Shown piece after piece: positions 26,730-64,000 of a stretch of DNA of 64,000 bases (position 1 is its first letter; each line of letters opens with the position of its first letter). Below the pieces are notes generated by a model, which made no database searches, had not been told where the DNA came from, and saw nothing but the letters and a program-made list of their open reading frames with translations. The position numbers were made by a program, and so were the translations under genes. The DNA comes from Botryllus schlosseri (lineage: Eukaryota): contig CM119371.1 of assembly GCA_051294905.1 (NCBI GenBank), positions 4,714,001-4,778,000 of the forward strand, read 5' to 3'.

Positions 26730-26872
26730 GGGTTACCCACATGCTACCCCATTAAATACCTCTGTAATATGGGGCCAAAAAGTTACGGGACCCGTTTGGT
26801 TTCCCAACTTGATTACCACATTTCATCCCAGCTTTGTTACCTTGTGGTACCCAAGTAGCCGTGCTACCTGGG
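26730..26872 (+). mobile_element. Solo right end of an EnSpm-like element related to 43874-52523
   Basis: AAATACCTCTGTAATATGGGGCCAAAAAG ... GGTACCCAAGTAGCCGTGCTACCTGGG is colinear with about 52382-52523. Confidence 0.8.
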
Positions 26873-33638: not shown

Positions 33639-33931
33639 CTTAGCAGCAAGGACAACATTACCTGACAAATTTCGAAGCTAAAGTTGTCCGATTCAACTAT
33701 AGATAACTAACCTACGGATAGATCAATGATATATATACAATGATTGGAAACTGCCACGCCCCTTAACGCTATAAGATAGTTTCCCGGCGAAATCAGTCCG
33801 TCGCGGGATATGCTTGAGTACAGAAACGGGATTGCGTATGTCGACTGTGGTGGGGTGCTGCGATCGGCGTTGCTGGCATACTAATTCACTGATTTTCCCC
33901 AATCGGTTTAGTTTTTGTTGGTTTCTTGAGC

Positions 33932-36270
33932 ATAGTGAGGCAGTGCTGCATAATAGGATGTAATACAACTTTTAACAATGCACATTTATCAAAGTACAGA
34001 CTAGCTGCGAAGCATTTTAGCATCAGTTGCAACCATGCATGTACGACACAGCCTAAAGAATTTATAGATACTGTGGGTGAGCGTCAATATAGATGTGCAG
34101 AACCTGGAAGGATTGTTGAAAGAGGATTTGAAATTTTTCTGGCAGCATTTACGTCACCTGATTTTTTAAAAGAGAAGGCTTGATTACGATAATTGTGTGA
34201 GCAACTAAGTTGTTTTAGATAGTATATATTGTAATATTGTGAGGCCGAATTCACCAAGGGCCGAGTTAACTGGCAACTATTGTACCAATATAGCGATTGT
34301 ACCTTCATAATATAAAATCGGAACTAACCGAAAACTATCATTGTACTGATTGCTAAAATGCTAACATATATAACTTTTTACTTGATCAGGCCGTTGAATC
34401 CACATCAATGATGAGAATCGGCATTGTTCCAAAGAATATACCATCGGCAAAACAATGCACTAGAACAGTGGTTCCCAACGTGGGCGATTTGGCGGTCTAG
34501 GGGGGGCGAAAATGGCGAAGGGGGGGGAAATGGACAAAGGAGGCGATGGGGGGGGGGCGAAAATAGCGAAGGGGGCGATAGGGGGGCAATGACGAGTTAA
34601 AACGGCTATGTTGGAGTCAAGTCAGAGAAATAACCTTTTTTTTAATTTTTAGTCATCCCACGAAAATTCAGTTGCAAAAGTGGAAAATTCGACATGGAAC
34701 GGAAAAGTTGACCTTTTTTTTTTTAGTCAACCCGCCGGTGATTACTGTTTGTATACCGGTTTTTCGGTTCACAAAATTTGGGGGGCGATGATCGGCGTTG
34801 AGCTTGAAAAGTGGGCGATGAGTCGAAAAAGGTTGGGAACCACTGCACTAGAATGACATTTAGGATAATCACTCCATAGTTAGTATTGTTCACATCGACC
34901 TGGCGTGATATGTCGTACTTCTCTCAATAGTTGAATCTTTCACACCGGGGTGTCCGAAAACATCTACCAATGCCCATTTATTCAAAATATACCTGGTAAA
35001 CGTTTTGGCACTTCTTTGATATGAACTACCTGTTGTGAGGTGTTCCCCATGAATTGCCTGTAAACCTTGAAATTTAACATGGAGTACTCGTTAAGATTGA
35101 TAGCTGGAAGGATTGTACAAAATAGATGATTTATGCATTTGCGAGCAACATTCTATGGTGTCTTATTCATTGAAAGGTTAGGAAATGATTTTGTAACCTT
35201 CGTCATTGTATAGTGTGTACGTCTATGGTTTTTTATGTATAACCTTCATAACTTTTCGCCATTTGCATCACGCTTTATGACCTGAGCATGAGCATCAACT
35301 TGCATTGTATGTGCTGCTACCCAGGTTATTTTTCCAGCAATGTAACTGCACAATCATCCAATGCAAAATCTCTCTTGAATATGCACATTGCTCATATATA
35401 TTGCATATGCGGCAGTACGGAAAATACTTGACGGATTGAATAAATAACTTGATTTCAATTGTAGTTGACTGGCAAAACTGTGACATAACAAATTCCCATT
35501 CTGTAAATGTCTAATGCATAAATTTTTTACAGGATCGTTAACATTTTTTTATAAATTATAGTCCATTCTAACTTTCAAGAAAAGATTGTTCGTGTATTGA
35601 AACAGCCGCAAAGCAACCCAAAGCCGCGAGGAAATTGAAAAGGATTCAGGGATCCTAATAAAAGTGCAAATCATTATCTTGTGGGATTTCGGCACGCCAG
35701 GTCGTCCATGAGAAGCAACCATGTCATGTTCCACTTTGCTTCAGACATTGAGATATTTCCAAAGATTGTAGTCAAAATGAATAATACTTTGACGAATGGT
35801 GCCGGATTGGATTGATACTCATTGGATCGATTGATGCAGAGAAAAATAGTCTTGCTGAAAGAAAATACATATTATTCGAGTACGAGAGGTGAAGAGATGG
35901 ACACTACAATGCAACCTGTGGATAATTTCGTGTGCCTTGTGAATATGACAACCAAGTTCAGCTACAACTGCCATTTAAAGCCATATTGCATTCCAGATAA
36001 TATTGCTTCACTTGTACTAGCTGGAAAAAGATATGCCGCTACTGCAAAACTGAAGATATTCTTATGCCGCAGAAACAGCAACGAAATTCGTGAGCAGGGA
36101 AGCTTATCAAAGAGACAAGAAAACAACAACAATGATAAATTTGATACGGACATTTTTGCCAACCATCGAGCAGACTACCTCATTATCACCAAGAGATTGA
36201 GTCTTGATCCGTTATTGGAATCATTTTTATCCTGATCAGGAAATCTGGCCGCACCTGCGATATGGTAATT
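33932..36270 (+). pseudogene. Decayed P/THAP9-like transposase (outer copy)
   Basis: N-terminal VRQCCIIGCN (THAP-like CxxxxC) and C-terminal DYLIITKRLSLDPLLESF/..IRKSG resembling the P-transposase motif YLLTxRLxQDxLExFFxxIR; many stops and frameshifts. Confidence 0.72.
34466..34845. mobile_element. Buster-type hAT MITE inside the P element (mirror copy 42558-42938)
   Basis: CAGTGGTTCCCAAC / GTTGGGAACCACTG; TSD CACTAGAA; GGGGGCGA subterminal repeats. Confidence 0.9.
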
Positions 36271-36597
36271 TTCAAAGAATAATTGATTTCTAAAGAGGCT
36301 TGAAACATACTAGTGTTCAAATGCCATGGTACTTGATGCTTGAATGCCCTCCGATGTTCAACGTCATGTGAGATCGCTGCTCTACCATCCAACTGCTGTC
36401 CTGTTATTGTCATTAAGAGAGGATAAGAAAGCTCGAAAAAATAACATTTGAGAATATATATTTTTGTTACGTGACAAGAAACATTGACGTTATCAACTAC
36501 TAGGCACAGTTATTCGATTGTTCATAATAGCACAGCACAGTTTCACAAATTACAACAAAAATAGATGCAGACAGTACATTTATCGAATGGCTTAAAC

Positions 36598-37294
36598 CAG
36601 GGCTGGCCAACCTTTTTGGCCTAAGGGCCACATTTGATTGACGAACTTTTGTGCAGGCCACTAACCGCGCTAAGCGCGAAAATTTTTTGAAGTTCGTAGA
36701 TCAATAATATTGTCACTTGACTGTATTGCAGGCCTGCTGTATATCGCTGGGCTAAGTTTGCAAGGACTGGGCTATTCGGCGCATGGACATATCGATATCG
36801 AAAGCTGTGACCAACATGCGCCAATCATGTCCTGCCTAGGTTACATGGTCGACGGTCTTACTGCGAGCGCAAACGCAAGGTCGCATATGTTGAACGACAC
36901 TTTGTCTCGTAATCGCGAATATAGTTAGACTCAAGCTGATACATTAGGTGTTCTTCCATTTTCACAAAAGGGCAACAATATTAAAAACAAGAAATCGAGT
37001 GGCAACATATTGCGCTAAGCTTGTAGAAATTTTTACCTTTGATAAATCTATCGCAAATTATTCTGCTTTATTGTAGTGTACGAAGATATACCAATATGTG
37101 AATGACTGATGGATCTGTCAATGCGTCGGAACTGATATTCTAGTCATCACATCTCAAGTATTGCGGCCAGACTAATCAAATTTTGGTTGGCCTTGCAAGC
37201 TTAAAATCTGTGCAATCCATTATATTAGAAATTTCGGAAATTACCTCGCGGGCCACTCAAAACCTTCTCGCGGGCCACGGGTTGGCCGGCCCTG
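36598..37294. mobile_element. Buster-type hAT MITE inside the P element (mirror copy 40076-40805)
   Basis: CAGGGCTGGCCAACC / GGTTGGCCGGCCCTG; TSD GCTTAAAC. Confidence 0.9.
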
Positions 37295-38106
37295 GCTTAA
37301 ACATAGGTATATCTGATATTGTAATTTGCATAAACAAGAAAATCCCTTTTTGCTACATATTGACTTGACTTAAATGCTTTCCGTTGACTAGGATTTTGGT
37401 TCTTGTTATTCTGAATTTAGATGACAACAAGTCTGACATGATAACAAAAGTTGTTTATGCAGTTTTTAAGTGTTATAGTAAATGAAATATCCATACCCTG
37501 TATAAAATTTTCAATGATATTATGGTGTTGGTATCCTCATTGAAATTTAGACACGACTAGTATCAGAGCATTTAGGAGTCCATGAAGAGGTGAGGTATTT
37601 AAGCTGTTCAAAATCCTGCTTCTGTAATACCCATGCGATGACACATTGTTATGATGCTCGGATTCGATCAACTTCTTCCATGATCACCTCGACCGTTGAG
37701 GGCATAGATGGTGATGTGGAGATGGAGATTTGTTGAGTGAAGGGGATTGTTGGATAGTCTCTATCCCGTCCCATTCTTCGAAGTCACCATCTTGCAAGTC
37801 AACTATGACTGTAAGAGTTGACAAACTGGACTGGACATGGACAACATCACAATTTAATGACTATACAAAGTATATGCTGTGAACAATCATTTATAGATCA
37901 TTGGCTGTGCACAATGATATATATACAATGATTGGAAACTCCAGTGAGCTCTGCGTTTGAGCGCGTCGCGAGTCATGCTTCACTACAGGAATGAAATCGA
38001 TGTAAACAAACGGTTCGCCAGCAATCTTTCTTCTGGAACTGGCGTTAATGTAGTGAAAAGTTTTTTAACGAGACCTATTTTGCACGTGAAATGTGTGCAT
38101 ACTGTA

Positions 38107-38721
38107 CAGTAGGGTGGTTCAAAAATAACCTTTTTTCCTGAATCTTGCTGGATACTTGATTAAATCGTTAGGTTGCCTTAAAAAACGACGCACACCAAAT
38201 TTGAATTCATTCCAACCAATATTCGCGGATTTCGTAGAGTTTGAAAATTCTGAATTTGCCTGAAAATGCAAAAAATTTCCAATTTTTCTGCCAACCCCAT
38301 GAAATTGTTGCGCTGTCTTCAAAAACGATGCAAAACAAATTTGACTCAATTCCAAGCTGTAGAAGTGGAGTTATTTCAGTTTTTCTTTGATAATTCTGGG
38401 ATTATCCTTGATTGGTGGATTATCCCAGAATTATCACCAAAAAACTTGAATAACTCCGCTTCTGCAGCTTGGAATTGAGTCAAATTTGTTTTCCATCGTT
38501 TTTGAAGACAGCGCAACAATTTCATAAGGTTGGAAGGAAAATTGGAAAAAAATTTTTTTTGCATTTTTAGGCAAATTCAAAATTTTAAAACTACGAAATC
38601 TGCGAATATTGGTTGGAATGAATTCAAATTTGGTGTGCGTCGTTTTTTAAGGCAACCTAACGATTTAATCAAGTAACCAGCAAGATTCAGGAAAAAAGGT
38701 TATTTTTGAACCACCCTACTG
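38107..38721. mobile_element. Tc1/mariner-type palindromic MITE (family B, young copy)
   Basis: TA|CAGTAGGGTGGTTCAAAAATAACC ... GGTTATTTTTGAACCACCCTACTG|TA; empty site in the outer copy near 53075-53080. Confidence 0.92.
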
Positions 38722-40075
38722 TACAGGTTTTGGCCAATACCAGTAGCATGGCTTAATATTCAGACGAAACTGATGTACCAGTGTGCCTACGTGATGAACA
38801 CTATGATCGGAGGTGGTCTCGCAGTATCAAATAAAGGTGGATACTTCATAGTACGAGCTAGAGTTGGGATCAGGTCACTATCTTCAAGTCATTGCAAATT
38901 TTTAATCAAGTCACGAAGTCATTTCTAATTTTTTCAAGTCAATTCAGGCAGGTTCTAAAACTGACTCTGAAGTCAGGCCTTCTGAAGTTGTGAAAGTAGG
39001 CAAAACCTACTTGAGGATATCGCAAAAAGCATCACGTTTTTGAAGTAATAATAGTCATTATTCCTTTGTTACGGAGATTCATCTTGTGATCCGAATGCTC
39101 ATATATACAATTGAATAAAAATAAAATATTTTTGTTTGATACATATCAGGAGTAATCGTCAGCAGCTTGTAGATACAGTATACAATTGACTAACAGATGT
39201 ATACAAAGTAAAGTCTAACTCATTTCTTCATACTACTCGAGTACTTTTCAGACCGTTCATTTTCTGCTTCAACAAGTAGATTTCAATATCCAATTGACTA
39301 AGAAACGTCTGCAAAACCTGGTCTTAACCTACTTTTTCAACCTACGGTACAATTTACCATGATATGATGGTATATCTTATAAGTGTATGTGTGCGCAAGA
39401 GCGACCCACAATAGGTAGAAAGTTCCTGCCACTGTCCATGTCAGGTTTGATAGACTTGTGCACAGCCAATGATCTATAAATGATTGTTCACAGCATATAC
39501 TTTGTATAGTCATTAAATTGTGATGTTGTCCATGTCCAGTCCAGTTTGTCAACTCTTACAGTCATAGTTGACTTGCAAGATGGTGACTTCGAAGAATGGG
39601 ACGGGATAGAGACTATCCAACAATCCCCTTCACTCAACAAATCTCCATCTCCACATCACCATCTATGCCCTCAACGGTCGAGGTGATCATGGAAGAAGTT
39701 GATCGAATCCGAGCATCATAACAATGTGTCATCGCATGGGTATTACAGAAGCAGGATTTTGAACAGCTTAAATACCTCACCTCTTCATGGACTCCTAAAT
39801 GCTCTGATACTAGTCGTGTCTAAATTTCAATGAGGATACCAACACCATAATATCATTGAAAATTTTATACAGGGTATGGATATTTCATTTACTATAACAC
39901 TTAAAAACTGCATAAACAACTTTTGTTATCATGTCAGACTTGTTGTCATCTAAATTCAGAATAACAAGAACCAAAATCCTAGTCAACGGAAAGCATTTAA
40001 GTCAAGTGAATATGTAGCAAAAAGGGATTTTCTTGTTTATGCAAATTACAATATCAGATATACCTATGTTTAAGC

Positions 40076-40805
40076 CAGGGCCGGCCAAGCCAGGGCCGGC
40101 CAACCCGGGGCCCGCGGGCCACGTGTGGCCCGCGAGAAGGTTTTGAGTGGCCCGCGAGGTAATTTCCGAAATTTCTATTATAATGGATTGCACAGATTTT
40201 AAGCTTGCAAGGCCAACCAAAATTTGATTAGTCTGGCCGCAATACTTGAGATGTGATGACTAGAATATCAGTTCCGACGCATTGACAGATCCATCAGTCA
40301 TTCACATATTGGTATATCTTCGTACACTACAATAAAGCAGAATAATTTGCGATAGATTTATCAAAGGTAAAAATTTCTACAAGCTTAGCGCAATATGTTG
40401 CCACTCGATTTCTTGTTTTTAATATTGTTGCCCTTTTGTGAAAATGGAAGAACACCTAATGTATCAGCTTGAGTCTAACTATATTCGCGATTACGAGACA
40501 AAGTGTCGTTCAACATATGCGACCTTGCGTTTGCGCTCGCAGTAAGACCGTCGACCATGTAACCTAGGCAGGACATGATTGGCGCATGTTGGTCACAGCT
40601 TTCGATATCGATATGTCCATGCGCCGAATAGCCCAGTCCTTGCAAACTTAGCCCAGCGATGTACAGCAGGCCCGCAATACAGTCAAGTGACAATATTATT
40701 GATCTACGAACTTCAAAAAATTTTCGCGCTTAGCGCGGTTAGTGGCCTGCACAAAAGTTCGTCAATCAAATGTGGCCCTTAGGCCAAAAAGGTTGGCCAG
40801 CCCTG
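40076..40805. mobile_element. Buster-type hAT MITE (mirror of 36598-37294)
   Basis: TSD GTTTAAGC on both sides; TIR tandemly duplicated at 40076-40103. Confidence 0.88.
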
Positions 40806-41132
40806 GTTTAAGCCATTCGATAAATGTACTGTCTGCATCTATTTTTGTTGTAATTTGTGAAACTGTGCTGTGCTATTATGAACAATCGAATAACTGTGCC
40901 TAGTAGTTGATAACGTCAATGTTTCTTGTCACGTAACAAAAATATATATTCTCAAATGTTATTTTTTCGAGCTTTCTTATCCTCTCTTAATGACAATAAC
41001 AGGACAGCAGTTGGATGGTAGAGCAGCGATCTCACATGACGTTGAACATCGGAGGGCATTCAAGCATCAAGTACCATGGCATTTGAACACTAGTATGTTT
41101 CAAGCCTCTTTAGAAATCAATTATTCTTTGAA

Positions 41133-43472
41133 AATTACCATATCGCAGGTGCGGCCAGATTTCCTGATCAGGATAAAAATGATTCCAATAACGGATCAAG
41201 ACTCAATCTCTTGGTGATAATGAGGTAGTCTGCTCGATGGTTGGCAAAAATGTCCGTATCAAATTTATCATTGTTGTTGTTTTCTTGTCTCTTTGATAAG
41301 CTTCCCTGCTCACGAATTTCGTTGCTGTTTCTGCGGCATAAGAATATCTTCAGTTTTGCAGTAACGGCATATCTTTTTCCAGCTAGTACAAGTGAAGCAA
41401 TATTATCTGGAATGCAATATGGCTTTAAATGGCAGTTGTAGCTGAACTTGGTTGTCATATTCACAAGGCACACGAAATTATCCACAGGTTGCATTGTAGT
41501 GTCCATCTCTTCACCTCTCGTACTCGAATAATATGTATTTTCTTTCAGCAAGACTATTTTTCTCTGCATCAATCGATCCAATGAGTATCAATCCAATCCG
41601 GCACCATTCGTCAAAGTATTATTCATTTTGACTACAATCTTTGGAAATATCTCAATGTCTGAAGCAAAGTGGAACATGACATGGTTGCTTCTCATGGACG
41701 GCCTGGCGTGCCGAAATCCCACAAGATAATGATTTGCACTTTTATTAAGATCCCTGAATCCTTTTCAATTTCCTCGCGGCTTTGGGTTGCTTTGCGGCTG
41801 TTTCAATACACGAACAATCTTTTCTTGAAAGTTAGAATGGACTATAATTTATAAAAAAATGTTAACGATCCTGTAAAAAATTTATGCATTAGACATTTAC
41901 AGAATGGGAATTTGTTATGTCACAGTTTTGCCAGTCAACTACAATTGAAATCAAGTTATTTATTCAATCCGTCAAGTATTTTCCGTACTGCCGCATATGC
42001 AATATATATGAGCAATGTGCATATTCAAGAGAGATTTTGCATTGGATGATTGTGGAGTTACATTGCTGGAAAAATAACCTGGGTAGCAGCACATACAATG
42101 CAAGTTGATGCTCATGCTCAGGTCATAAAGCGTGATGCAAATGGCGAAAAGTTATGAAGGTTATACATAAAAAACCATAGACGTACACACTATACAATGA
42201 CGAAGGTTACAAAATCATTTCCTAACCTTTCAATGAATAAGACACCATAGAATGTTGCTCGCAAATGCATAAATCATCTATTTTGTACAATCCTTCCAGC
42301 TATCAATCTTAACGAGTACTCCATGTTAATTTTCAAGGTTTACAGGCAATTCATGGGGAACACCTCACAACAGGTAGTTCATATCAAAGAAGTGCCAAAA
42401 CGTTTACCAGGTATATTTTGAATAAATGGGCATTGGTAGATGTTTTCGGACACCCCGGTGTGAAAGATTCAACTATTGAGAGAAGTACGACATATCACGC
42501 CAGGTCGATGTGAACAATACTAACTATGGAGTGATTATCCTAAATGTCATTCTAGTGCAGTGGTTCCCAACCTTTTTCGACTCATCGCCCACTTTTCAAG
42601 CTCAACGCCGATCATCGCCCCCCAAATTTTGTGAACCGAAAAACCGGTATACAAACAGTAATCACCGGCGGGTTGACTAAAAAAAAAAAAGGTCAACTTT
42701 TCCGTTCCATGTCGAATTTTCCACTTTTGCAACTGAATTTTCGTGGGATGACTAAAAATAAAAAAAAAAGGTTATTTCTCTGACTTGACTCCAACATAGC
42801 CGTTTTAACTCGTCATTGCCCCCCTATCGCCCCCTTCGCTATTTTCGCCCCCCCCCATCGCCTCCTTTGTCCATTTTTCCCCCCTTCGCCATTTTCGCCC
42901 CCCCTAGACCGCCAAATCGCCCACGTTGGGAACCACTGTTCTAGTGCATTGTTTTGCCGATGGTATATTCTTTGGAACAATGCCGATTCTCATCATTGAT
43001 GTGGATTCAACGGCCTGATCAAGTAAAAAGTTATATATGTTAGCATTTTAGCAATCAGTACAATGATAGTTTTCGGTTAGTTCTGATTTTATATTATGAA
43101 GGTACAATCGCTATATTGGTACAATAGTTGCCAGTTAACTCGGCCCTTGGTGAATTCGGCCTCACAATATTACAATATATACTATCTAAAACAACTTAGT
43201 TGCTCACACAATTATCGTAATCAACCCTTCTCTTTTAAAAAATCAGGTGACGTAAATGCTGCCAGAAAAATTTCAAATCCTCTTTCAACAATCCTTCCAG
43301 GTTCTGCACATCTATATTGACGCTCACCCACAGTATCTATAAATTCTTTAGGCTGTGTCGTACATGCATGGTTGCAACTGATGCTAAAATGCCTCGCAGC
43401 TAGTCTGTACTTTGATAAATGTGCATTGTTAAAAGTTGTATTACATCCTATTATGCAGCACTGCCTCACTAT
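41133..43472 (-). pseudogene. Decayed P/THAP9-like transposase (inner copy)
   Basis: Mirror of 33932-36270; the paired small ORFs differ by only 0-2 residues. Confidence 0.72.
42558..42938. mobile_element. Buster-type hAT MITE (mirror of 34466-34845)
   Basis: Same TIRs; TSD TTCTAGTG. Confidence 0.9.
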
Positions 43473-46400
43473 GCTCAAGAAACCAACAAAAACTAAACCG
43501 ATTGGGGAAAATCAGTGAATTAGTATGCCAGCAAGGCCGATCGCAGCACCCCACCACAGTCGACATACGCAATCCCGTTTCTATACTCAAGCATATCCCG
43601 CGACGGACTGATTTCGCCGGGAAACTATCTTATAGCGTTAAGGGGCGTGGCAGTTTCCAATCATTGTATATATATCATTGGCTGTGCACAAGTCTATCAA
43701 ACCTGACATGGACAGTGGCAGGAACTTTCTACCTATTGTGGGTCCCTCTTGCGCACACATACACTTATAAGATATACCATCATATCATGGTAAATTGTAC
43801 CGTAGTTTGAAAAAGTAGGTTAAGACCAGGTTTTGCAGACGTTTCTTAGTCAATTGGATATTGAAATCTACTTCCCAGCTAGCACACCCACTTGGTATGG
43901 AAGTGGAATTTAGGTGGTTAGGTGGGGTGGAAAAACGAAATGGGTTGGTAACATGTATACCACATTGAACCCAAGCGGGATTTCCATCCATATAGATGCG
44001 TGGTTATACCATACCAATCCCAGGTAGATTCCAATAAGTCTATCTTGTCGTTAATGTTAATTGCACATATCTATTTGAACTCGGGAGAGTTTTACCTGTT
44101 GAGTTTTTGTAATCAAATCATTTTGAAACCTGAGAAATCCACCTATAGAGAAGCTTAGATTTCCTATACATTACCCACACAGGAACCAACCTTATTTTCC
44201 ATCAATGTTATTTGGTTTATTTAATCGAATAAGAAGGTGTTGCCATATGTAGTAAAGTTTTCTAGCTATTATGCGATCCCTGTTGGTCGCTCTAACATCG
44301 AACTTTAAAACTCCTACCATGCTTTACTTTGTCCATGTGATTTGAACTGTTTAAAATTGACCGTTTGTCACACTGAAGTGAACTGAAATTCCCTTTGCTA
44401 GAGTACTCAACTCCTCAGAGTGTGTGATATAATTTTATAGCGTGGATCGGTAGAATAACGATCGAACCAACTGTCCGGATCCTCTAGAATTTTATTTTTT
44501 CGAGTTCAGTCAGCCATGAAAAGTTATAGTTAATCAAGCCCGCCAATTTCTTAGAACTTCCGTCTTTCGAAGCTCAAGTCGCTCTCGCTACCGTGGCTCT
44601 TTTGCACTGGGACGTGGAAGAAGTCCCTTCGGCTGCAGGTAGAAACGTAGACAGTATTTTTAGGTGACTGAATTGTCAGTTAGGTTGATAGTGATTTAGT
44701 TTTACTGAGAGATACTGATTGAAAAGTAGTAGAGCCTGAAAGATAGTCTGTGCGTCGTATAGAAAACAAGTTCGTGGTTCGTATCAATACCTTTATAGCA
44801 GTAATCCCAAAGCTATATGCATTATAGCCTCAATTATTTGCTAATTTCTCGGTTCAATATAATAGTTCTTTCTCTTGAAAAATATGGTATCTGATTATTT
44901 AGCTGCAGGTCAGTTGTTATAAGTTGCCTTGTACATAAGAGAATCAAAGTTCTAAAATGTATTGGCTTACCCCTATAATATCACCCGTTTTGCTCTACCT
45001 GACCTATTGCTCCCTTGGAATCTTGAGGATTGTACGGTGTTTTGATTGATGAAAGAGAAGCAGAAATGGCGACGCCTGCATGACAATTCTATTCTCTTAT
45101 CCGCATTGTCTTGCTACTAAAATACAGGCTTGTTGTGGAACGTTACATTGTTTCTTGATTAGATAATTGACTAGGCCTAGTAGAGTAAAGTTAGCCTAAC
45201 GATATTAGCTAGCAGTTTTGACACTTCTTCAACACTACGAAGGCATCGAAAAGTGTTCACCACGATCACCGCCTATACATGTTCTCCGTGAACATGTCAG
45301 AATTTATGATGTTTCACGTGGAAATCAGCTGTGCTCCCATTTTATGCTATTTTCTCCTCGCCCAGATATATCGCACAACTGATACGTTAATCTCTGGCGC
45401 ATATCTTGCTGATTGTACCTTAAACGTGGGGTTGTGAACATTCATTCATTCATTACATTCTGTACGCTTTAGCACCTATCTAAATCATGCATCATTTCCA
45501 ATTGCCAAGACAAAAAGTGTCGGATATTTCGTTTGCTAGTGAGGTATATGAGGGATTCTAGTTCATTACAAGACTTCTCCAGCACGGACATATAATATGG
45601 ATATATTCGATTATATCAATATATATTATTGGGATGGCGAATGCGAGACAAAGGCTGCCTCCAAATTTTCTGATGTAATCCGTTTTCTGTGGATTCTGTT
45701 AAAAATCATCATTCCTCAAAGGGTATATCGCCCTTTCTCAGTTTGGCGTAGTTTTACGTGCTATTTGAAAGTTCCTTCCAAGATCACATTGATATCGTCA
45801 ATCTCCATCCTACTGACGCAAGCCTATTTTGATTTCATATACTCGTGTTTTTCCATGGATGCATGTATTGACTTCGCCTCTTGATTCAAAAGACTTTCTA
45901 TCAATATGTCGAATATATTCGATAATGAAATACTCCGTGGAGATGAGTTTGTGAAAGACTTCGCTAAAAGCCTCGAGGGCAATCTGACAGTCGTCAAGAA
46001 TGCCACATTCAAGTCTCAATTTGTTATATCGAGCTATCATTCCGAAACATGCCACTTCATTAGGCTATTTTCCCTTCACTTCTGTTTCTTTATATTCAGT
46101 GTCTATCATACAATGTACATATTGCAATGTGCCATATTACGACGTTAGTGCTTCTTTACACCGTCTTATGGCTATTGGTAGCTGGGTGTCCGACTGTCCG
46201 GCTTTAATGACTGCTTCATATCGTTTCAGTACCTTTATATTTTTTCATTAAATCGCAATCTATTCGTGTTTTCAAAATGATGAAATACCAACATCTGATT
46301 ATCATCAGCTCGCTCCTGCATCACATATTGCCAAGCATGTCCTAGCGACACGAGCCTACAGCCTTGATTCCGTCCACATATGTTTTCCATCGTACGTGAT

Positions 46401-47000
46401 GATGATTTTGCATGAGTTGACTTGACCTATTGATTCAATAGGCTTCATTTTAATCACTCGATTAAAATTGGGGCAGTCATGTAATGAACTAGAACCCCTC
46501 ATGGAGAACATGTATTGGTGGTGATTATGGTATTCACTTTGCGATGTCTTCATACTATCGATGAAGTGCCTCAGTTTTCTGACGCTGAAGTTATTATCTT
46601 CCCAGTTTATAGCCTGGTATATAGCTGACCGAACGCCCCTGCTTCGATCAAGGTATAGTTATCATCGCGCGTGCTGTAGGGTCAGTCATACGGTTCGGAA
46701 AGATGCTGAAAATCATATGTTCGTGTACGCTTCTGTAATCGTTAGCTTAGCGATCATAGTTGATTGATCAAGATGACCCTATAATATCGACTGAATAGGC
46801 TACACCACTGTGTTGACCTGATGCTCATTTTGTTTAACCTTTTGGAAAAAAGTGATTTCACTTTTTGGAAGTCAAGTTGAATTACCAAACATATGTGTCA
46901 ATGTTTTCACTGCATTTTTTGCTAACTGAAAGATCAGCCACAAAAACCTGACTGCAACAGTTGTTTACAGTATAGTTCGTGAATATTTGATTGATCAGTA

Positions 47001-49073
47001 ATGGATATACCTAAAAGAACGCGGAGTCGGAGAAGAAAACAGGCTTATGAAATTTACCTTGGTGAAATTCAAGCTGAGGTGGCAAGAGGACCCTCTGATA
47101 GCTTGGAACAGGCTGAGGGGCAAATTCAAGCTGAGGTGGCAAGAGGACCCTCTAATAGCTTGGAACAGGCTGAGAGGCATCGTGATAGCTCAGATCGATG
47201 TGGTGATGATGGTGTCTTTCAAGTTACCAGTACTTCATATATTGATGCCAATACGTTTACTCAAATGGATGATGTTGCCGACTGGTCTAGTTCAGAAGAG
47301 GAGTCACCTGATAGTCGAAAAGTTGGTAATTTATCCGCACTACTTCGGGACTGGGCATGTAAGCATAATATAACGCATTGTGCATTTCGTGAATTGCTGA
47401 TAATACTCCGCATTCACACTCAATCAGATTTGCCAAAGGACCCCCGAACGTTGCTGAAAACAATGAGAACGGACGACTATGAAATTAAAAATGTGTCAGG
47501 AGGTTTATATCATTACATAGGCCTGCAAAAGGCTATTGAAGGAGCAGTACTGAGGAGGAGCATACAGCAAATCACCATTGATGTTAACGTGGATGGAATA
47601 CCTCTTTTCAAAAGTGCAAGATCATCCCTTTGGCCCATTCTTGCTCAAGTAAAAGAGTTGAAAGGATTCGATCCATTTGTCGTGGCCATATTTTATGGAC
47701 CCGGAAAGCCATCATCAATAGCAGAATATTTAAAAGACTTTGTCGAAGAAATGCGAGATCTTATGGTTAATGGAATGACGATTCAGGAAAAGACATATCA
47801 GGTGGCAATCAATGCTGTTATATGTGACTCACAAGCACGAAGTTTTATCAAAGGAATAAAGGGGCATAGTGGGTACAGCTCATGTGAGCGTTGCATACAA
47901 GAAGGCGAATTTGAAGGTAGAATGACCTTTCCAGAACTTGATGCAACACTCCGCACTGACGAATCCTTCTGCACGATGGAAGATGAAAACCACCATCTGC
48001 AGCAATCGCCTTTGGTGGAACTCGGTATCGGCATGGTGTCGCAGGTTGTTTTGGACTATCAGCATTTGATATGCTTGGGCGTTGTACGGAAAATACTGTA
48101 TTATTGGATATTTCCACCCGGCCCGTTGACAGTCAGACTGCATGCCAGGGATATCAAGAAGATTTCCGATACGCTGTTGAGTTTAAGGCCACATTTATCA
48201 CAGGAATTTTCTCGGAAGCCAAGATCGCTCCTTGAATCAAAGTTATGGAAAGCAACGGAATTTCGCCAATTCCTCCTATATACTGGTCCAGTATGTCTCA
48301 AGGGAATTTTGAAAAAGAAAGTATATAGAAATTTCCTGCTTTTGTCGGTTTGCATTCGGTGCTTACTACATGACAACGCGTATGGTTTGGACTATGACTA
48401 CATCGAGTGCCTTCTAAAGATTTTTGTTCAAGAATTTTCCTGCATATATGGAAAGGAGTCATTGGTTTATAACGTTCACAGCGTAATTCATCTTGTTGCC
48501 GATGCGAAGCGCTATGGGTCATTACAAAACATATCCTGCTTTCCTTTTGAATCCATGCTTGGGAGGTTGAAGGGCTTGGTTCGGAGCTCGCGCAATCCAA
48601 TTGCCCAAATTCTTCGTAGAATTGATGAGAAAGAAAACTCTGAGAGGGAATGTGGGCCTGGGCATGATGAAGCATTGACTCCTCAGTTTTGTCAAGAGTA
48701 CTATTCTGGACCCAAATCTGAGGGCCATAGACAATTCCGTCGGTTTCGATCTGATGCTCTGTCCTTTTCCTTGAATGAAGGGGACAATTGTGTGAATATT
48801 CATAACAAAATATGTATGATTCAGAATATTTTGCAAAATTCCTCCGGAGGCTCCAGTGGTTTAGTAGTATATCAAATATTTCGACATTCTGAGAAATTCT
48901 TCGACCGTCCGTTTGATTCGACCTTGATTGGGATTAAACGGGTTAACCGTTTGTCGTCAAATCTGCATACCGCGAGTATAACAGATATCAGTCACAAGCT
49001 GGTAGTCTTGCCTGATGCAAATGATGTCAATGATGCGTACGTGGTTTTCCCTTTGATTCATCAATCCATATGA
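47001..49073 (+). CDS. EnSpm/CACTA-like DDE transposase, 690 aa, uninterrupted
   Basis: Motifs LPKDPRTLL, NVDGIPLFKS..SLWPIL, ICDSQARSFIK..GHSGYSSCERC, LDYQHLICLGVVRK, WKATEFRQFLLY, YNVHSVIHL and SCFPFES. Confidence 0.9.
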   Translation: MDIPKRTRSRRRKQAYEIYLGEIQAEVARGPSDSLEQAEGQIQAEVARGPSNSLEQAERHRDSSDRCGDDGVFQVTSTSYIDANTFTQMDDVADWSSSEEESPDSRKVGNLSALLRDWACKHNITHCAFRELLIILRIHTQSDLPKDPRTLLKTMRTDDYEIKNVSGGLYHYIGLQKAIEGAVLRRSIQQITIDVNVDGIPLFKSARSSLWPILAQVKELKGFDPFVVAIFYGPGKPSSIAEYLKDFVEEMRDLMVNGMTIQEKTYQVAINAVICDSQARSFIKGIKGHSGYSSCERCIQEGEFEGRMTFPELDATLRTDESFCTMEDENHHLQQSPLVELGIGMVSQVVLDYQHLICLGVVRKILYYWIFPPGPLTVRLHARDIKKISDTLLSLRPHLSQEFSRKPRSLLESKLWKATEFRQFLLYTGPVCLKGILKKKVYRNFLLLSVCIRCLLHDNAYGLDYDYIECLLKIFVQEFSCIYGKESLVYNVHSVIHLVADAKRYGSLQNISCFPFESMLGRLKGLVRSSRNPIAQILRRIDEKENSERECGPGHDEALTPQFCQEYYSGPKSEGHRQFRRFRSDALSFSLNEGDNCVNIHNKICMIQNILQNSSGGSSGLVVYQIFRHSEKFFDRPFDSTLIGIKRVNRLSSNLHTASITDISHKLVVLPDANDVNDAYVVFPLIHQSI
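47065..47175 (+). repeat. In-frame 57-bp tandem duplication in the transposase N-terminus
   Basis: IQAEVARGPS(D/N)SLEQAE occurs twice. Confidence 0.95.
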
Positions 49074-49238
49074 TATGTGTGCGCTAAAAGTATTTAAAAA
49101 ATCTGATCTTCAGTTATAGGCCCAACGCCTAATCATTTCTTGCCACGTGGTAGTGTCGTACCCACCTCATATATAGGTTTTCCCTGTGACAGTATTGAGA
49201 ACATGCATCTTGTTGTTTTTGACAGATCCATAATCGTA

Positions 49239-51095
49239 ATGTCGAAGAAAGTATATTGTGTGGTTGAATTCCTAGACAGCAAGGACAAGGTGTCGGCAGC
49301 TGTCGTGCCAAAGACATGGCTTGGAAAAAATGGCCGATGCTCCTGGCCCTCGAAAATGTCATCTAACAAAATTGACAAGTTGCTGAAAAAATTCAGAGAT
49401 CCTGAAAAAAACTGGGCATTGCACGCCGTTAAAATTTTGGCCGAAACTAGTATGTTTCGTATGCGTATTGGATTGACCTATCCTTGCGTATTACTGTATT
49501 ACTTATTATTTTCTAGATGACTATGCAGAGGCAAACAAGAAATTGCAAAGATCTCTGAGGCAGACGGATTGCGAGCTTTCGGAATCTGCTGGAGCACTTC
49601 CAGCTAAACGGAAGTAAAGCAAAATACTCTTAAAAGTCTTCTCTATGGAATGGAACTTCAAAATATGACTAATGATAACACAGGTCTACAAATTTCAAAC
49701 AAACAAAAAAATGGTGGTGATAAGTCTTTCTCCTTTTTTCGACTTTTGAAAATATATGTCGACGCAGCGCTTTCAGATGGTGGCAGTTTTCATCTTTATA
49801 CATCATAAATGGTCAAAAAATTGTGTTTAATAACTCCATACTTCACTTATTTCCCACCGTTATCTTGCTATATCTGTCCTGCATACTTAGTCGGTCAATA
49901 TCCCATTTTTGTTTCAGAGTGATCCCTACTCGGAAGAGAAGATTGATAGAAGAGACAAGCAGTGACACCGATGATGATGATAGCCCGATCATATGTCCAC
50001 CACCTGTGTGGCGGCCAAATAATTCTAAGAAGTCAGGTACAAATCAAATCAATTATCCCATTTCTGATTCGGTAACTTGATGGCTAGCACAATGCTTTAT
50101 CATTTTTCAGCAAAAAAGTATTGCTACTTGGAGGGGCAACATAGTCAGTCTGTCCGTTCCCTCGGTGACAGGGAAGATGATCCTAGTGAGGAAGTACCCG
50201 CATCATTCACCAAGTCTCGCTGTTCGGACACGCAATACAATGAACCTGATTGGGTCCTCGACAACACTGATATTGATAGTGGTGAAGAAGTGCCCTCCTC
50301 AGTTATATCCTCAACAAATCAATACAATCCTGGTGTGTATTGTATTGATATTCAGCAGATGCATAATATTAAAAAATATTATTTTATGTTACAGTTATAT
50401 CGGCTGAATCGAAAACGATGGGTCGCAGATTGGTGAATCTTCAATCGGACGTCAATCGAATGTCGCGTAGCATCCAGAGAATAGAACATTTCATGGAGCT
50501 GATTCTGCCATACTTCAACGCGTCTAGGACATCAGAACTACCTTCAGTGTTTCCAATACAAGACGGTGAAAAACTACAGAATTTGGATCAGCTTTTTGCT
50601 AGTGAGCCGGGAATTTTTGAACGGATGGTAAACTTGTGCTTTTGCAAACAAAGATCCGTACTAACTCGTACGTTCGTACAGGTGAAGACTCTGGCTAATA
50701 TTGGTGGCGATACTTCCGATGACTTCATGAGACGGGTAATGCCGAGATTATTGAAGAACGAATTTGCAAATCGCTGTAGCGTTTTCGGACGAAATGATAA
50801 ATTTAAGCTGAAGAACACAATGATTTTTAAAGGCGTTTTTGGTAATACCCGAGTAATTTTTATGTCTTTTAATCGGTTATGAATTGATTTACCTTCGACA
50901 GCTGCAGTCAAGATGAACATCAACACAAAAGATTGCACCGAAAAAGATATTGAACGTGCCATGCGAAAGTGGATCACCAATTCAAGAGATCGTGCCGGTG
51001 GTTCAAGATTCATGACACAGAAGAACTCATACCCAGGAGCGACACAGGATTGCAATCGTCTTCAACCAGAAATAGAAAAAAGCAACGCAGAATGA
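49239..51095 (+). CDS. Transposon accessory gene, predicted 7 exons, 411 aa, C-terminal DUF4806-like domain
   Basis: Exons 49239-49449, 49517-49613, 49918-50036, 50111-50332, 50395-50627, 50682-50841 and 50902-51095 join through GT-AG introns in one frame (1236 nt). N-terminus YCVVEF..AVVPKTWL..CSWP; C-terminus LANIGG..FMRRVM..LLKNEFA..SVFGR..KF..RKWITNSRDR. Confidence 0.8.
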
Positions 51096-52139
51096 TAACA
51101 ATCATTTCATAGAATTGAGCACTCATCTGGCCGCTTCGGTGCTAGGACATACTGACAGTGGTGGTCAGTAACAAGTATTTTTACTCTTTCGATACGACGG
51201 ATTATGTGTACTTGATTTGATTATCGATTATTTTGATATTTCTACTTGAACAGTTATTCATAGTGGTTGCAAAGTTTCAAGTAGTTTTGGTATACGTTCA
51301 CACCAATTCTAGGTGTTGAATGACCACTTAGTGTGTGTCAAATCAGCATAAACATGTCAAATAGCTATAGCAGTACTTCTTGAATGTATTTTCAAGTATT
51401 GTACCAGTCAATTTATGGTGTCATTAGTCATTTTTGTTTAGTCGCTCGCGAAGAAACATCTTGTGATTTGAAAGTATGCGCCACCTCTGAGTGAGTATGA
51501 ACGATTGAACATTATCGTTGTTGAAAAATGACTTTTTTTAACAATTTCACTGGTTACTCGATAAAATTGTTAGGTTAGCTAAGAAACTCTCAACATCATA
51601 TACGGCTCCATTTGAAACAGTGGAACTGGAAGCGTAGTTACTGCATTACAAAAATTTGAATGCAAATAAAATAGTTGGTATCTATGGTGACCACCTAACA
51701 GTTTCATAAAGCAGACAGAATAATTGGAAAGAAATATTATTTACATATTATATAATCAATCCAAAACTTTCTCCTGTAGCAATGCGATTACAGGTAGGAA
51801 TTGAACCAAATTTGGTATGCAGCCAACTAACAATTCATCAAGTAGCCATTGAAATTTGAAAAAGAATTAATAAACAGCCCTGTTAAACTTGTGCACCACT
51901 GCTAGTCTATTGTATTTGTACATTTTCGTTTGTTTTGTTTATTATTTGAAATGTGTGAATTTACCAGACAGACTTGGACAACTAAAACATTTTCAGCTTT
52001 TCCAAATTAGATTAGAATTAGTCCTACAGTTTTTTTCCAAACCACATTAAAATTTGAATACTGGCATGTCGCTCCAAATTATATTCGATTGCTATAGTTG
52101 TACAAGTCTGGTTCCAGATAACTGTGCAAGCCTGTCGTC

Positions 52140-52232
52140 TTCGTTTGTTTGCAATATGCCAATTTTCGTTTGTAGTTCGTTTGCAATATACCAATTTTGG
52201 TATTTTCGTTTGTACGTTTGCAATATACCAAT
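52140..52232. repeat. Short subterminal tandem repeat in the EnSpm-like element
   Basis: TTCGTTTG..GTTTGCAATAT(G/A)CCAAT occurs three times. Confidence 0.75.
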
Positions 52233-53857
52233 GTTCCAGGTAACTGTGTGAGCCTTTTTATTATTAATATGGGTTCCCTGGTATGTAAGTGATATATGAT
52301 GGTTCATAGGATATGATTAGATCAGTTACGACTGTAGTGGGTGGATTGAGGTCTAAGCGTGGGATCCCCGCATAAATGAATGGTTAACCCACATGGTGCC
52401 ACAGAAAATACCTCTGTAATATGGGGCCAAAAAGGTACGGGTACCGATTGGTTTCCCCACTTGGTAACCGCACCTCGTCCCATTTTGATACCTTCCGGTA
52501 CCCAAGTAGTCGTGCTACCTGGGTTGTTGAAGCAGAAAATGAACGGTCTGAAAAGTACTCGAGTAGTATGAAGAAATGAGTTAGACTTTACTTTGTATAC
52601 ATCTGTTAGTCAATTGTATACTGTATCTACAAGCTGCTGGCGATTACTCCTGATATGTATCAAACAAAAATATTTTTATTTTTATTCAATTGTATATATG
52701 AGCATTCGGATCACAAGATGAATCTCCGTAACAAAGGAATAATGACTATTATTACTTCAAAAACGTGATGCTTTTTGCGATATCCTCAAGTAGGTTTTGC
52801 CTACTTTCACAACTTCAGAAGGCCTGACTTCAGAGTCAGTTTTAGAACCTGCCTGAATTGACTTGAAAAAATTAGAAATGACTTCGTGACTTGATTAAAA
52901 ATTTGCAATGACTTGAAGATAGTGACCTGATCCCAACTCTAGCTCGTACTATGAAGTATCCACCTTTATTTGATACTGCGAGACCACCTCCGATCATAGT
53001 GTTCATCACGTAGGCACACTGGTACATCAGTTTCGTCTGAATATTAAGCCATGCTACTGGTATTGGCCAAAACCTGTACAGTATGCACACATTTCACGTG
53101 CAAAATAGGTCTCGTTAAAAAACTTTTCACTACATTAACGCCAGTTCCAGAAGAAAGATTGCTGGCGAACCGTTTGTTTACATCGATTTCATTCCTGTAG
53201 TGAAGCATGACTCGCGACGCGCTCAAACGCAGAGCTCACTGGAGTTTCCAATCATTGTATATATATCATTGGATAGATGGGCAGCACGAGAGTCACGGTC
53301 GAGTGATGCGACAACGGCAGATTTGTTGTCGCTTCATAGCATGAAACGGGAGCGTAATTGCTAATCCCATAGATGACGACCCGAGCGCTCAAATTAAATA
53401 ACGTTGATCTTATTTGAAAGCTACAGTCGCGCTGATTCTGATAATATACAATAAATTTTCATCAAGGCAATGGAACCATCTCGAAATAGCCTTCAAAATA
53501 TGAAAATCGGCATTGTTCTAAACAATCGCAACCACGCACGGACCGTTGTTATGGTCATTGTGCTGCGCCGTTGCAATTGTTTTAGAACAATGCCGATTTT
53601 CATGTTTTGAAGGCTATTTCGGGGTGGTTCCATTGCCTTGATGAAAATTTATTGTATATTATCAGAATCAGCGCGACTGTAGCTTTCAAATAAGATCAAC
53701 TTTATTTAATTTGAGCGCTCGGGTCGTCATCTATGGGATTAGCAATTACGCTCCCGTTTCATGCTATGGAGCGACAACAAATCTGCCGTTGTCGCATCAC
53801 TCGACCGTGACTCTCGTCTTGCCCATCTATCCGTAGGTTAGTTATCTATAATTCAAC

Positions 53858-60100: not shown

Positions 60101-60575
60101 CGTCCAAGTATGCTTGTAATCAACATTACAGATCTCTAACGAACATTGCCTTTTCGACCGGCGCAGTTAGAGGTACATTACATTTATAATGAGGAAATAC
60201 TTTTACCCTTCTTCTGCACTACTCAAGAACGATGTCGACGAAATCCTTGTCTTGGAACAATCCGTGAAATCCAACGACGTGCTCGTGATTCAAACTTCGA
60301 TGGAGACTGATCTCTTGCAACATTTGTCCTTCTCATGCTACTTCAGAAGCAATGCCTGAAATTCAGATACTGGCTTTGGTTGCAGATTTTAAAAAAGTGA
60401 GTAGGTCTAGTTCTAGGTGTGCATGTAAAAATATTTTAGTTGCCGATCAACTAGAAAACATGTGTCTTCGTTTGTTTTGAATCATGATACAGGTTTTCCG
60501 TTGTGTGATGTTCTTGCAGCCGTCTCAGAGTCATCACTACTATTAATGGTGAAGCCACGGGCAAATCCTTATGAG

Positions 60576-62807: not shown

Positions 62808-64000
62808 CTTATGAGTATTCTGTACAAGTAGAAGTACTATTGTTACGGGCTGACTATGCTCACATGCGCTCAGTTGCATCCTTTCTAGTTTATTTAATGT
62901 CCAAGTCCAGCAACGGCCGCAAAGTGGTTCAAATAAATGTGCTGAAGGTTTGGAAATATGTCTTGAGCTAGTTGCCATATTATTTCAAAATAGGTTGAAT
63001 ATATCGAGGTTATCGGTAGAGGTGCTACTTATCGGCATTGGCTCAAAAATAAGATATCTGTCGTGTCGGGCTCTAGTTATGAGAGAGACTCGAGTGCGAG
63101 ACCAGAAACGTAATACGATTCAGAATCCAATAAATCAGGAACTCGGTTTTGCCTAGAATTACGAAAAAGCTCACTGTTGAAACTCAAGAGAGGACGCCTT
63201 TGCTGTAGTTGGTTTTCCGAAATTCTAGGCGCCATCGTCATGCAGGTTATGGGCAGTTTCTGAACAATGCAGCCGTTGAAATACTTGTTCGCCGGCATTT
63301 CCTTTACAGGGGTCGATTTCTAACATTCCAATGAGAAGATCACATATATAAACAACATCAAAGATAGTACCCAACATTTTCATAACATTGTTTGTTAATC
63401 GGGATTTGTGAATTCAAACTATAATACCAATCAAGATTCGTATTTGGATAGAAATAGATTCAAGTATCAGATAAGCAGATTTGCAGACTTGGACAACTAG
63501 AATATTTTCAGCTTCTCTGAATTAGACTAGAATTAGCATTACAGATACAGAGTTAATTTCCATATTAGAATATAATTATCATGATATCTACACAGTTATT
63601 TCCAAATTAGATTAACCTTAGAATGATAGTTACACATTTTTTTCCGCATTAGATTAGAAATAGAATAAAAGCTACACAGTTTTTTATAAAAACTGATTTC
63701 GTGAACCTTTGGACATGGAATCAAGTTCAGTCCATATCAAACCAGAGTTAATTCTCATAAGCATGAGGATGACAAATGTTTGTACAGGAAGTTTGTCTCG
63801 TTTTGCGCTTCACAGTTCTCCTGTAGCAATTTCAGGAAAACCAGAAATTAGATCAGAATTGAGAGTATAGAAACATTTGCCATATTATAATTAGATTTCA
63901 GACATTCGCTCCAATTAGTTTTATTAGATAACTCTGCTACGATTATTTAGTTGCCAAAGTCTGACTATGACTATCTAAAAGTACTTCGTTACTGATCACC

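Follow-up and report, generated by a model that had tools for sequence, protein, structure and literature searches.

According to the description by DeMarco et al. (2006; PMC1636069), TRC elements carry CCC ends, generate 2-bp duplications and have a second, spliced open reading frame (ORF) behind the transposase. Plant CACTA elements are described with CACTA...TAGTG ends and a target site duplication (TSD) of 3 bp (PMC4158355). The CMC/CMCT clade (EnSpm-Mirage-Chapaev-Transib) is characterized in PMC12730594 by a DDE triad together with C(2)C and H(3-4)H motifs, comprising two Cys and three His residues. In the 64-kb window, i.e. the whole stretch of DNA that was analysed, we found an EnSpm/CACTA-type element of 8,650 bp (43874-52523; Table 1). 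It is very probably a complete and recent copy of a low-copy family in the CCC-ended animal TRC branch of the CACTA/EnSpm (CMC) superfamily, working by the two-protein mechanism that we propose below. A preliminary description of this DNA had spoken of a structurally complete, two-gene EnSpm/CMC-type element, and the borders, the 2-bp TSD, the open transposase and the predicted seven-exon second gene all support it. The element has the DDE, C(2)C and H(3-4)H residues of the CMC/CMCT clade, its TT duplication lies within the 2-5 bp of that clade and the predicted fold of its transposase is RAG1/Transib-like; CCC is present at both termini, and a 2-bp TSD, seen for one insertion, is present as in TRC elements. 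It does not belong with plant CACTA (En/Spm sensu stricto), as it has CCCAG ends and a 2-bp TSD. CCC ends and a 2-bp TSD define TRC elements in the published account (PMC1636069). As this combination was published in 2006, the element adds a member to a described group and is not an unusual type.

The left and right 12-bp ends are identical at 11 of 12 positions, confirming the CCCAG termini and short imperfect terminal inverted repeats (TIRs) reported before. The filled site reads CTAC-TT / element / TT-GTTG and the empty site CTAC-TT-GTTG; the latter was found, as had been claimed, within the same window, in a sister copy of the host repeat. In addition, contigs from three of the four sequencing runs (X1, X11 and X17) fuse position 43871 to 52524, with 8,652 bases absent and a 2-base overlap. 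A shifted placement of the ends with a 3-bp TSD was considered and rejected: there is a single TT at the empty site, and ends moved in this way would not be inverted. The exact end 12-mer occurs three times in the window, at the two element ends and at an orphan end (26861-26872), and with two mismatches allowed there are 6 occurrences compared with 3.66 expected; the motif alone is not rare, and the proof of insertion therefore rests on the empty site. TGGGT/TTGGT motifs, which were picked post hoc, number 6 in the left and 4 in the right 150 bp versus 0.66 per 150 bp internally. A long regular motif array was absent from the left subterminal 150 bp.

Table 1. Positions of the element, its genes and the surrounding host repeat in the 64-kb window.
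Feature	Position	Strand	Remarks
Host copy U1, composite non-autonomous repeat	33724..53271	-	identical 29-bp end on both sides; 7-bp duplication GATAGAT
Host copy U2, nested in U1	37912..43680	+	8-bp duplication GCTGTGCA
Empty target site in sister host copy	39274..39275	-	single TT
Left TSD copy	43872..43873	+	TT; 2-base overlap at contig joint
Left TIR	43874..43885	+	CCCAGCTAGCAC
Left subterminal 150 bp	43874..44023	+	many short TGGGT/TTGGT and GGT(A/T) motifs
5' non-coding region	44024..47000	.	no long ORF
CMC/EnSpm-type DDE transposase	47001..49073	+	intronless; 690 aa; no internal stop
In-frame 57-bp tandem duplication	47065..47178	+	acidic, low-confidence N-terminal linker of transposase
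Gene 2 exon 1	49239..49449	+	conserved 70-aa beta-rich domain, possibly Tudor-like
Gene 2 exon 2	49517..49613	+	splice signals and frame only
Gene 2 exon 3	49918..50036	+	basic, then acidic; splice signals and frame only
Gene 2 exon 4	50111..50332	+	acidic linker; splice signals and frame only
Gene 2 exon 5	50395..50627	+	DUF4806 (BEN-type) region begins
Gene 2 exon 6	50682..50841	+	DUF4806 core; acceptor position common to relatives
Gene 2 exon 7	50902..51095	+	end of BEN-type domain and stop codon
3' region with abundant-repeat pieces	51500..52160	.	same repeats elsewhere in window
Right subterminal 150 bp	52374..52523	-	motif-rich; 83% identity with orphan end 26729-26872
Right TIR	52512..52523	-	CCCAGGTAGCAC, as read on minus strand
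Right TSD copy	52524..52525	+	TT

Host copy U1 contains both the EnSpm element and host copy U2, which is without the element and has a small insertion of its own. Around the insertion site, the two copies were compared over 938 bases, with 935 matches, 3 mismatches and 1 gap; the flank matches between the element-bearing copy and its sister were 198/198, 558/559 and 210/213, and 18 of 4,179 positions differed in the remaining part. The argument that a near-identical sister without the element speaks for a recent insertion is thus supported by the 935/938 matching bases, and it is highly likely that the element family moved recently. U2 is a further member of a host repeat that is abundant, and does not represent the allele that this locus had before the insertion. 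It is very unlikely that the age indicated by the host copies is too young, either because the sister lost the element by exact repair from one of many empty templates, or because the two copies are assembled haplotypes whose empty site gives no date. The empty form is abundant in other runs (joint depth of 1130 in X1 versus 32-92 over both genes, depth not being copy number), and templates for exact repair would therefore have been available. However, the sister match holds on both insertion flanks, the 8-bp duplication and small insertion of U2 agree with true nesting of one copy in the other and not with joined haplotypes, and the element ends, ORFs and splice sites are all intact. The label "P" given earlier to the host repeat was not confirmed: it goes back to CA..TG ends and 7-8-bp duplications, which we take to be diagnostic of a P-type host repeat. 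A THAP-looking remnant in the repeat found no THAP match in Pfam.

Near 44200-44280, the 5' non-coding region of the element contains a short fragment of an abundant repeat. It also has two inverted pairs, both diverged, formed by 45222-45291 and 46499-46568 and by 45548-45581 and 46469-46502. The repeat pieces of the 3' region are also present in the copies from other runs and are therefore a feature of the family. No second full copy of the element's own family, and no second TSD, was seen in the data examined. Four organism labels carry the element (word shares 0.28-0.63), and horizontal transfer was considered; it is unsupported, and X11, a DNA-type run with another label, also has the empty host repeat in one contig.

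The transposase ORF proved to be stop-free over its 690 codons, as described previously. Conservation was examined in an alignment of the best 120 of 849 matches, from which P0002, a fused piggyBac/EnSpm gene model, was excluded. The expected catalytic-motif blocks were all found: the putative catalytic and zinc residues D198, D276, E517, C295/C298, H355 and H493/H497 are each invariant in 119/119 aligned relatives and all eight are kept here, the acidic triad D198/D276/E517 being assigned from conservation and spacing. Motif I of the TRC elements (DeMarco et al., 2006) is matched completely at residue 191, and the metazoan/fungal box A motif is matched but for Gln instead of Leu/Met at 354, a strict match being present in 111 of the 119 relatives in this alignment. 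An AlphaFold model of the protein (pLDDT 81.5) had its best structural matches in the PDB to RAG1, an amphioxus RAG-like protein and Transib (E 6e-9 to 2e-5, TM about 0.4-0.5); a PDB sequence search with the transposase profile gave no match. Among 21 aligned proteins, Pfam returned weak matches to two plant-associated models, DUF4218 (20/21) and Transposase_21 (3/21). The named relatives among the matches listed are animal proteins, from fishes, sea cucumber, shrimp and sea spider. In viral contigs, 44 pattern matches included no relative, and the exact proteins of the element were absent from the protein collection searched.

We give slightly less than an even chance to the possibility that this copy still makes a working transposase. 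Two residues past D276, the second catalytic Asp, it has Gln278 where the relatives have Pro in 119/119 (best 120 of 849 matches), and the Gln codon is one base away from a Pro codon. Altogether, 6 of the 115 conserved columns, that of Gln278 included, show a residue other than the consensus one, the median among the matches listed being 3. Such changes would fit a copy that is structurally whole but has an impaired transposase, moved in trans or damaged after insertion, and is thus not an active autonomous element, which we regard as a serious possibility though one just short of even odds. The RNA runs examined, in which no expression was seen, also point this way, as do the copies in other runs, which diverge by 0.4-3% (for example 1/257, 7/902, 8/471 and 18/582 bases), too much for a burst of identical copies. 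On the other hand, both ORFs are open (the second as predicted) and the six introns are canonical. Moreover, some of the departures are lineage traits: Gln354 is common to the element and P0003, the closest relative among the matches listed, and Ser400 is also found in an X17 contig, whose sole difference across 48119-48375 is at 48245. Sole-deviant residues at otherwise invariant columns occur in 13 of the 120 sequences of this alignment, and one such change is therefore not rare. An impaired transposase contests only the "active" part of the reading, not the identity of the element.

As to the expression data, neither gene was hit by a read from the raw RNA run X22, which bears another organism label and of which about 12% was covered. 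Contigs of X17, whose RNA origin is a guess, cover non-coding parts; one spans intron 6 without a gap, and those listed are unspliced. None of the 15 contig joints listed, out of 29, coincided with a predicted intron, and among the matches listed there was no RNA dataset containing the two genes.

The second gene is predicted to consist of seven exons within 49239-51095, joined across six GT-AG introns into 411 codons with a single terminal stop; the spliceable gene proposed before is thus supported as a prediction. Its last part matches DUF4806 (Pfam PF16064) with 27.8 bits at a cut-off of 25 (50373-50879, translated together with its intron). The near-identical P0122 scored 26.7 bits and another relative, P0125, 60.1 bits, and the spliced domain aligns with that of P0125 without gaps at introns 5 and 6. 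DUF4806 is presented as a subtype of the BEN domain in a preprint (bioRxiv 10.1101/2023.12.06.570431, citing Pan et al., 2023).

The domain encoded by exon 1 was modelled with a pLDDT of 87.9. Among 48,161 chains the top three structures were all Tudor domains, namely ARID4B (Z 5.7, rmsd 2.0 over 47), RBBP1 (Z 5.0) and JMJD2C (Z 4.3), followed by the next at Z 2.5, where a match with Z < 8 may reflect merely a common arrangement. Foldseek found no match to the model at E<=0.001, the Pfam Tudor family matched none of the 51 members of the exon-1 domain and a PDB sequence search with exon 1 gave weak unrelated rows only. In the protein atlas, exon 1 matched only unnamed eukaryotic clusters, with low recognition. 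Judging from the model, the first domain of the second protein is possibly Tudor-like. When full-length relatives of gene 2 were sought, 0/155 candidates were accepted at E<=0.001, a weak test in which the ORF retained an intron; the exon-1 profile, likewise a weak test, gave one match among 7,989.

The arrangement of the two genes was followed in related loci, taking the best 80 of 543. The exon-1 domain lies downstream of the transposase, on the same strand, in 43 of the 44 loci whose sequence continues for 1.5 kb or more downstream, and in 35/36 after near-identical loci were merged; in the same set of 80, all 64 matches to the domain were in this position and none was obtained on reversed decoys. 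The transposases of the loci with the domain are 36-46% identical to that of the element. Intron positions are shared too: the donor of intron 1 is kept in 57/63 loci (again from the best 80 of 543) and the acceptor of intron 5 in 14/14 matches examined. Gene 2 is therefore unlikely to have been captured from the host or to be carried passively without taking part in transposition, since cargo would not stay so uniform behind the transposase. A captured gene would agree with the presence of BEN domains in host transcription factors of the ordinary kind (PMC5704228) and with the annotation of zebrafish DUF4806 genes as host genes (bioRxiv 10.1101/2023.12.06.570431); against this, two ORFs, of which ORF2 is a helper, are given as the norm for CACTA elements (PMC4158355).

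CCC ends were also found in the related loci L028, L051/L052, L059/L061 and L060/L062/L063/L064, and a family with a 36% identical transposase has the same end CCCAGGTAGCAC next to three different flanks. At the two-ended loci L028, L051, L052 and L062 no duplication was visible; they are repeats put together by assembly, in which flanks of different copies may have been united. When the related loci were scanned blindly for TIRs and TSDs, all pairs obtained were chance-like. A relaxed end motif matched 19 times in 483 kb (13 inward-facing) compared with 3-14 times in 20 shuffles, and the ends were therefore taken where near-identical loci diverge.

We read the gene 2 product, by analogy, as a counterpart of maize TnpA, and propose the following mechanism. 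The DDE transposase, with its predicted RAG1/Transib-like fold, would cut both ends of the element and join them to the target with a 2-nt stagger, giving the TT duplication. The second protein would take the part of TnpA: its BEN-type domain would bind the short motifs that lie within 150 bp of either end, and so assist in end pairing or regulate the promoter of the element. The first domain may be a reader of chromatin or DNA.

Taken as a single element, the locus is mostly ordinary, since CCC-ended animal CACTA relatives with 2-bp TSDs have been known since 2006. What is new here is the DUF4806 (BEN-type) end and possibly Tudor-like start of the second gene, with gene order and intron positions kept across relatives. 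This supplies concrete domain content for the putative helper protein of the branch, which the account of DeMarco et al. (PMC1636069) leaves open. With an intronless transposase, defined ends and a proven TSD, the element is also a clean, compact template for an animal CMC excision assay. On balance we favour a wider view, in which a protein with Tudor-like and BEN (DUF4806) domains fills the place of TnpA in the CCC-ended animal branch of CACTA. On this view, many of the DUF4806 "genes" that are lineage-expanded in animals (zebrafish chromosome 4, Hydra, a beetle) would belong to such transposons as second ORFs or derive from them by domestication. In Hydra, DUF4806 is listed among the expanded domains alongside transposase domains, with 69 and 54 copies (PMC7642931), an expansion that would be explained if DUF4806 rides on such elements. 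A link between DUF4806 genes and ORF2 of CCC-ended transposons was not found in a full-text literature search, and Repbase, Dfam or Pan et al. (2023) may state it.

The closest described systems are the TRC elements of Schistosoma mansoni (SmTRC1), Tribolium and Aedes, which like our element have CCC ends and a 2-bp duplication recognized through empty paralogous sites (PMC1636069). The element, at 8.65 kb, is within their size range of 4.5-9.2 kb, transposase motif I and a spliced second ORF behind the transposase (predicted here) are common to both, and its end resembles those of Tribolium (CCCTAGTAGCAC...) and Aedes (CCCAGTCAAC) closely (PMC1636069). Differences are seen in the TIRs, which in SmTRC1, likened here by its published description, are 54 bp long compared with 12 bp, and in box A, where TRC has Leu/Met and the element Gln (PMC1636069). 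For the second protein of the schistosome element, that article reports no similarity to other TRC elements and names no domain, whereas ours has DUF4806 and a first domain shared with relatives (PMC1636069). Zebrafish EnSpm-N49/N49B and their autonomous partner similarly have a 2-bp duplication (CA there), a short TIR, two proteins in the partner and recent movement in an animal genome; their ends are CACTCAAAAAAAT and not CCCAG, and their mobility was documented by mutation, while that of our element is inferred (PMC13189230, PMC11202377). Maize En/Spm (TnpD and TnpA/ORF2) also combines a transposase having the DDE triad with a second ORF, which in plants supports transposition (PMC4158355, PMC1636069). 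Compared with plant CACTA, the transposase of the element is intronless and its subterminal motifs are short and lack regularity; a Pfam search of its second protein gave no TnpA-type domain of plants. RAG1 and Transib, whose TSD is 5 bp, have different ends and only 8-11% sequence identity with the transposase. They are the nearest solved folds to its model and have the C(2)C and H(3-4)H motifs in common with it (PMC12730594).

Contigs from sequencing runs X1, X11 and X17 (the last only guessed to be RNA) connect position 43871 to position 52524, overlapping there by 2 bases, thus confirming the borders of the element and its 2-bp target site duplication (TSD) independently of the present assembly; a fourth run, raw RNA under another organism label, had no coverage at this site. 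The left end of the 8,650-bp element is CCCAGCTAGCAC and the right end, on the other strand, is CCCAGGTAGCAC, with 11 of 12 positions identical. TT is found on each flank and a single TT at the corresponding empty site. The CCCAG ends with short imperfect inverted repeats, the 2-bp TSD and the empty site in the window, all claimed in the preliminary description, were therefore borne out. TGGGT/TTGGT, motifs picked after inspection, occur 6 and 4 times in the terminal 150 bp, against 0.66 per 150 bp in the interior. A further right end, an orphan, shares 83% identity with the final 144 bp of the element and closes with the identical 12-mer; it is probably the remnant of a related family, and no left end to pair with it was seen in the window.

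Positions of the features in the window
Feature	Position	Remarks
EnSpm/CACTA-type element	43874-52523	inserted in U1
Transposase gene	47001-49073	690 aa
Gene 2 (model)	49239-51095	411 aa
Empty site	39274-39275	in U2
Orphan right end	26729-26872	
Host copy U1	33724-53271	7-bp duplication; carries element
Host copy U2	37912-43680	nested in U1; 8-bp duplication; without element
Stop-free stretch of host repeat	33902-34180	mirror near 43230-43500
Split palindromic element	about 33700-33723 and 53272-53832	
Palindromic element	38102-38726	about 610 bp; only in U2
Diverged relatives of the latter	14533-14916	also elsewhere
C2H2 zinc finger arrays	6450-9167 and 16252-18585	minus strand; about 30 and 27 units
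Inverted arrays	20748-22633	
Long repeat	1341-4692 and 57624-63347	77-84% identical

The insertion lies inside a composite repeat in which a single 29-bp end sequence bounds both sides, and whose two copies, U1 and U2, are identical at 935 of 938 bases near the insertion site, with 18 differences in 4,179 over the remaining part. This is most simply read as arrival of the element after U1 and U2 had split, and hence recently, in agreement with what had been proposed from the sister copy without the element. In X1 the empty form had a depth of 1130 and the element genes 32–92 (depth, as the tool warns, is no copy number), so the host repeat is abundant, and the EnSpm family looks low-copy.

The host repeat, provisionally named P from its ends and TSD, is non-autonomous and bounded by two copies of one left end. 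It sits within another copy of itself, having integrated precisely at the 8-bp site that adjoins the inner element's end, a nesting that suggests transposition of P type from two left ends, and a hot spot in the target. The outer copy splits a small palindromic element, and the far arm of that element, still intact, bears out the 7-bp duplication. A stop-free stretch resembles by eye the start of a THAP zinc finger; no THAP domain was matched there in Pfam. The palindromic element confined to U2 has borders compatible either with an 8-bp duplication and TAGGG ends or with a TA duplication and CAGT ends. Elsewhere in the window, long, open zinc finger arrays with an 84-bp period lie in tandem paralogous genes, a 15-16-bp unit in inverted arrays with TTAGGG-rich repeats in the core looks like a foldback-type element, and the second copy of a long repeat is broken by insertions.

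The transposase is encoded, as had been described, by a single frame open throughout. Among 8,000 candidates, 849 relatives were found at E ≤ 0.001, the nearest full-length one being 55% identical; those named among the best 120 of the 849 are animal proteins. The catalytic motifs expected in the preliminary description are present: D198, D276, E517, C295, C298, H355, H493 and H497, all eight, were invariant in an alignment with 119 relatives, and by sequence they correspond to DDE + C(2)C + H(3-4)H, given in the accessible text of PMC12730594 as the CMC/CMCT clade signature. Pfam gave DUF4218 alone, under the cut-off, and for the relatives additional weak Transposase_21 and DUF1258. The predicted structure (pLDDT 81.5) best matched RAG1, an amphioxus RAG-like transposase and Transib. 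The protein departs from the consensus in 6 of 115 conserved columns, against a median of 3. Two of these changes are lineage traits, since the nearest relative also has Gln354 and an X17 contig also has Ser400; Gln278, beside D276, stands where 119 of 119 relatives have Pro. Judged from the alignment, these departures and Gln278 would count against full transposase function. A sole deviation of this type occurs, one each, in 13 of 120 sequences.

The second gene, claimed to be spliceable, holds up as a predicted model of seven exons with GT-AG introns throughout, exons 2-4 being based on splice signals and reading frame. Its C-terminal part is above the Pfam cut-off for DUF4806, a BEN subtype (bioRxiv 10.1101/2023.12.06.570431; PMC10789644, both seen in part), and when spliced aligns without gaps at introns 5 and 6 with the related protein P0125. 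Near-identical pieces (97%) are present in other public assemblies. For the predicted exon-1 structure (pLDDT 87.9) the top three matches were Tudor domains (Z 5.7, 5.0 and 4.3; next 2.5), a likeness that serves as a lead only. P0125 itself carries DUF4806 twice, together with an N-terminal segment similar to the transposase start, and may derive from an element that was deleted or spliced.

Of 543 metagenome loci carrying a related transposase, the best 80 were searched with the exon-1 profile; it gave 64 matches in 63 of them, all downstream of the transposase on the same strand, and zero on reversed decoys. Where the downstream sequence reached 1.5 kb or more, the domain was present in 43 of 44 loci (35 of 36 once near-identical loci were merged), and where it reached 4 kb or more the BEN part was present in 11 of 15. 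In 57 of 63 loci the intron-1 donor lies at the identical codon position, and the place of the intron-5 acceptor is conserved in 14 of 14 matches examined; the two-gene layout is thus a property of the whole lineage. The right end CCCAGGTAGCAC recurs with three different flanks (L060, L062, L063) in a family whose transposase is 36% identical and whose left end is CCCAAGTAG (L062, L064). L028 has CCCAGTTAGC at each end, and L051/L052 and L059/L061 start with CCCA as well. In the four related loci where both ends are present, all of them assembled repeats, no TSD was visible. Complete 12-14 kb relatives (L051:2294-14510, L052:1219-13435, L060, L062, L063, L064) are identical or nearly so between contigs with differing flanks; L051/L052 and L060/L062/L063/L064 are probably young multi-copy families of the element's branch.

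No RNA dataset was listed for the two genes, and no reads fell on either in the raw RNA run. X17 contigs cover non-coding parts and run through intron 6 unspliced, and no predicted intron was among the 15 of 29 joints listed. These observations neither support nor exclude expression. Copies in other runs diverge by about 0.4-3% from the window copy, and no second insertion site of the family was among the rows listed. Of the candidate active family proposed earlier, kind, structure and recency stood, and activity stays putative. By analogy with its family, the DDE transposase would cut and paste the element with 2-nt staggered strand transfer, and the second protein, like TnpA (PMC1636069, PMC4158355, in part), would use its BEN-type domain to bind subterminal motifs, aiding end pairing or promoter control.

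Interest in the element centres on its helper gene and on its potential as a template for assays. Full-text searches of the literature turned up no description of the domains in the second protein; DUF4806 has been reported, in the text available, as expanded genes in zebrafish, Hydra (PMC7642931) and a beetle, and PMC3485254, PMC4455052, PMC9341512, PMC5704228 and PMC12062965, in part, served as background only. The accessible text of DeMarco et al. 2006 (PMC1636069) describes relatives of CACTA in animals that have CCC at their ends, a second ORF that is spliced, and 2-bp duplications demonstrated via empty paralogous sites; the present element therefore belongs to an already described kind and is new as a family member. 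Their Tribolium and Aedes ends are closely similar to those found here, whereas zebrafish EnSpm, as far as described in the parts seen of PMC13189230 and PMC11202377, shares the 2-bp duplications and two proteins but has CACTC instead of CCCAG ends.
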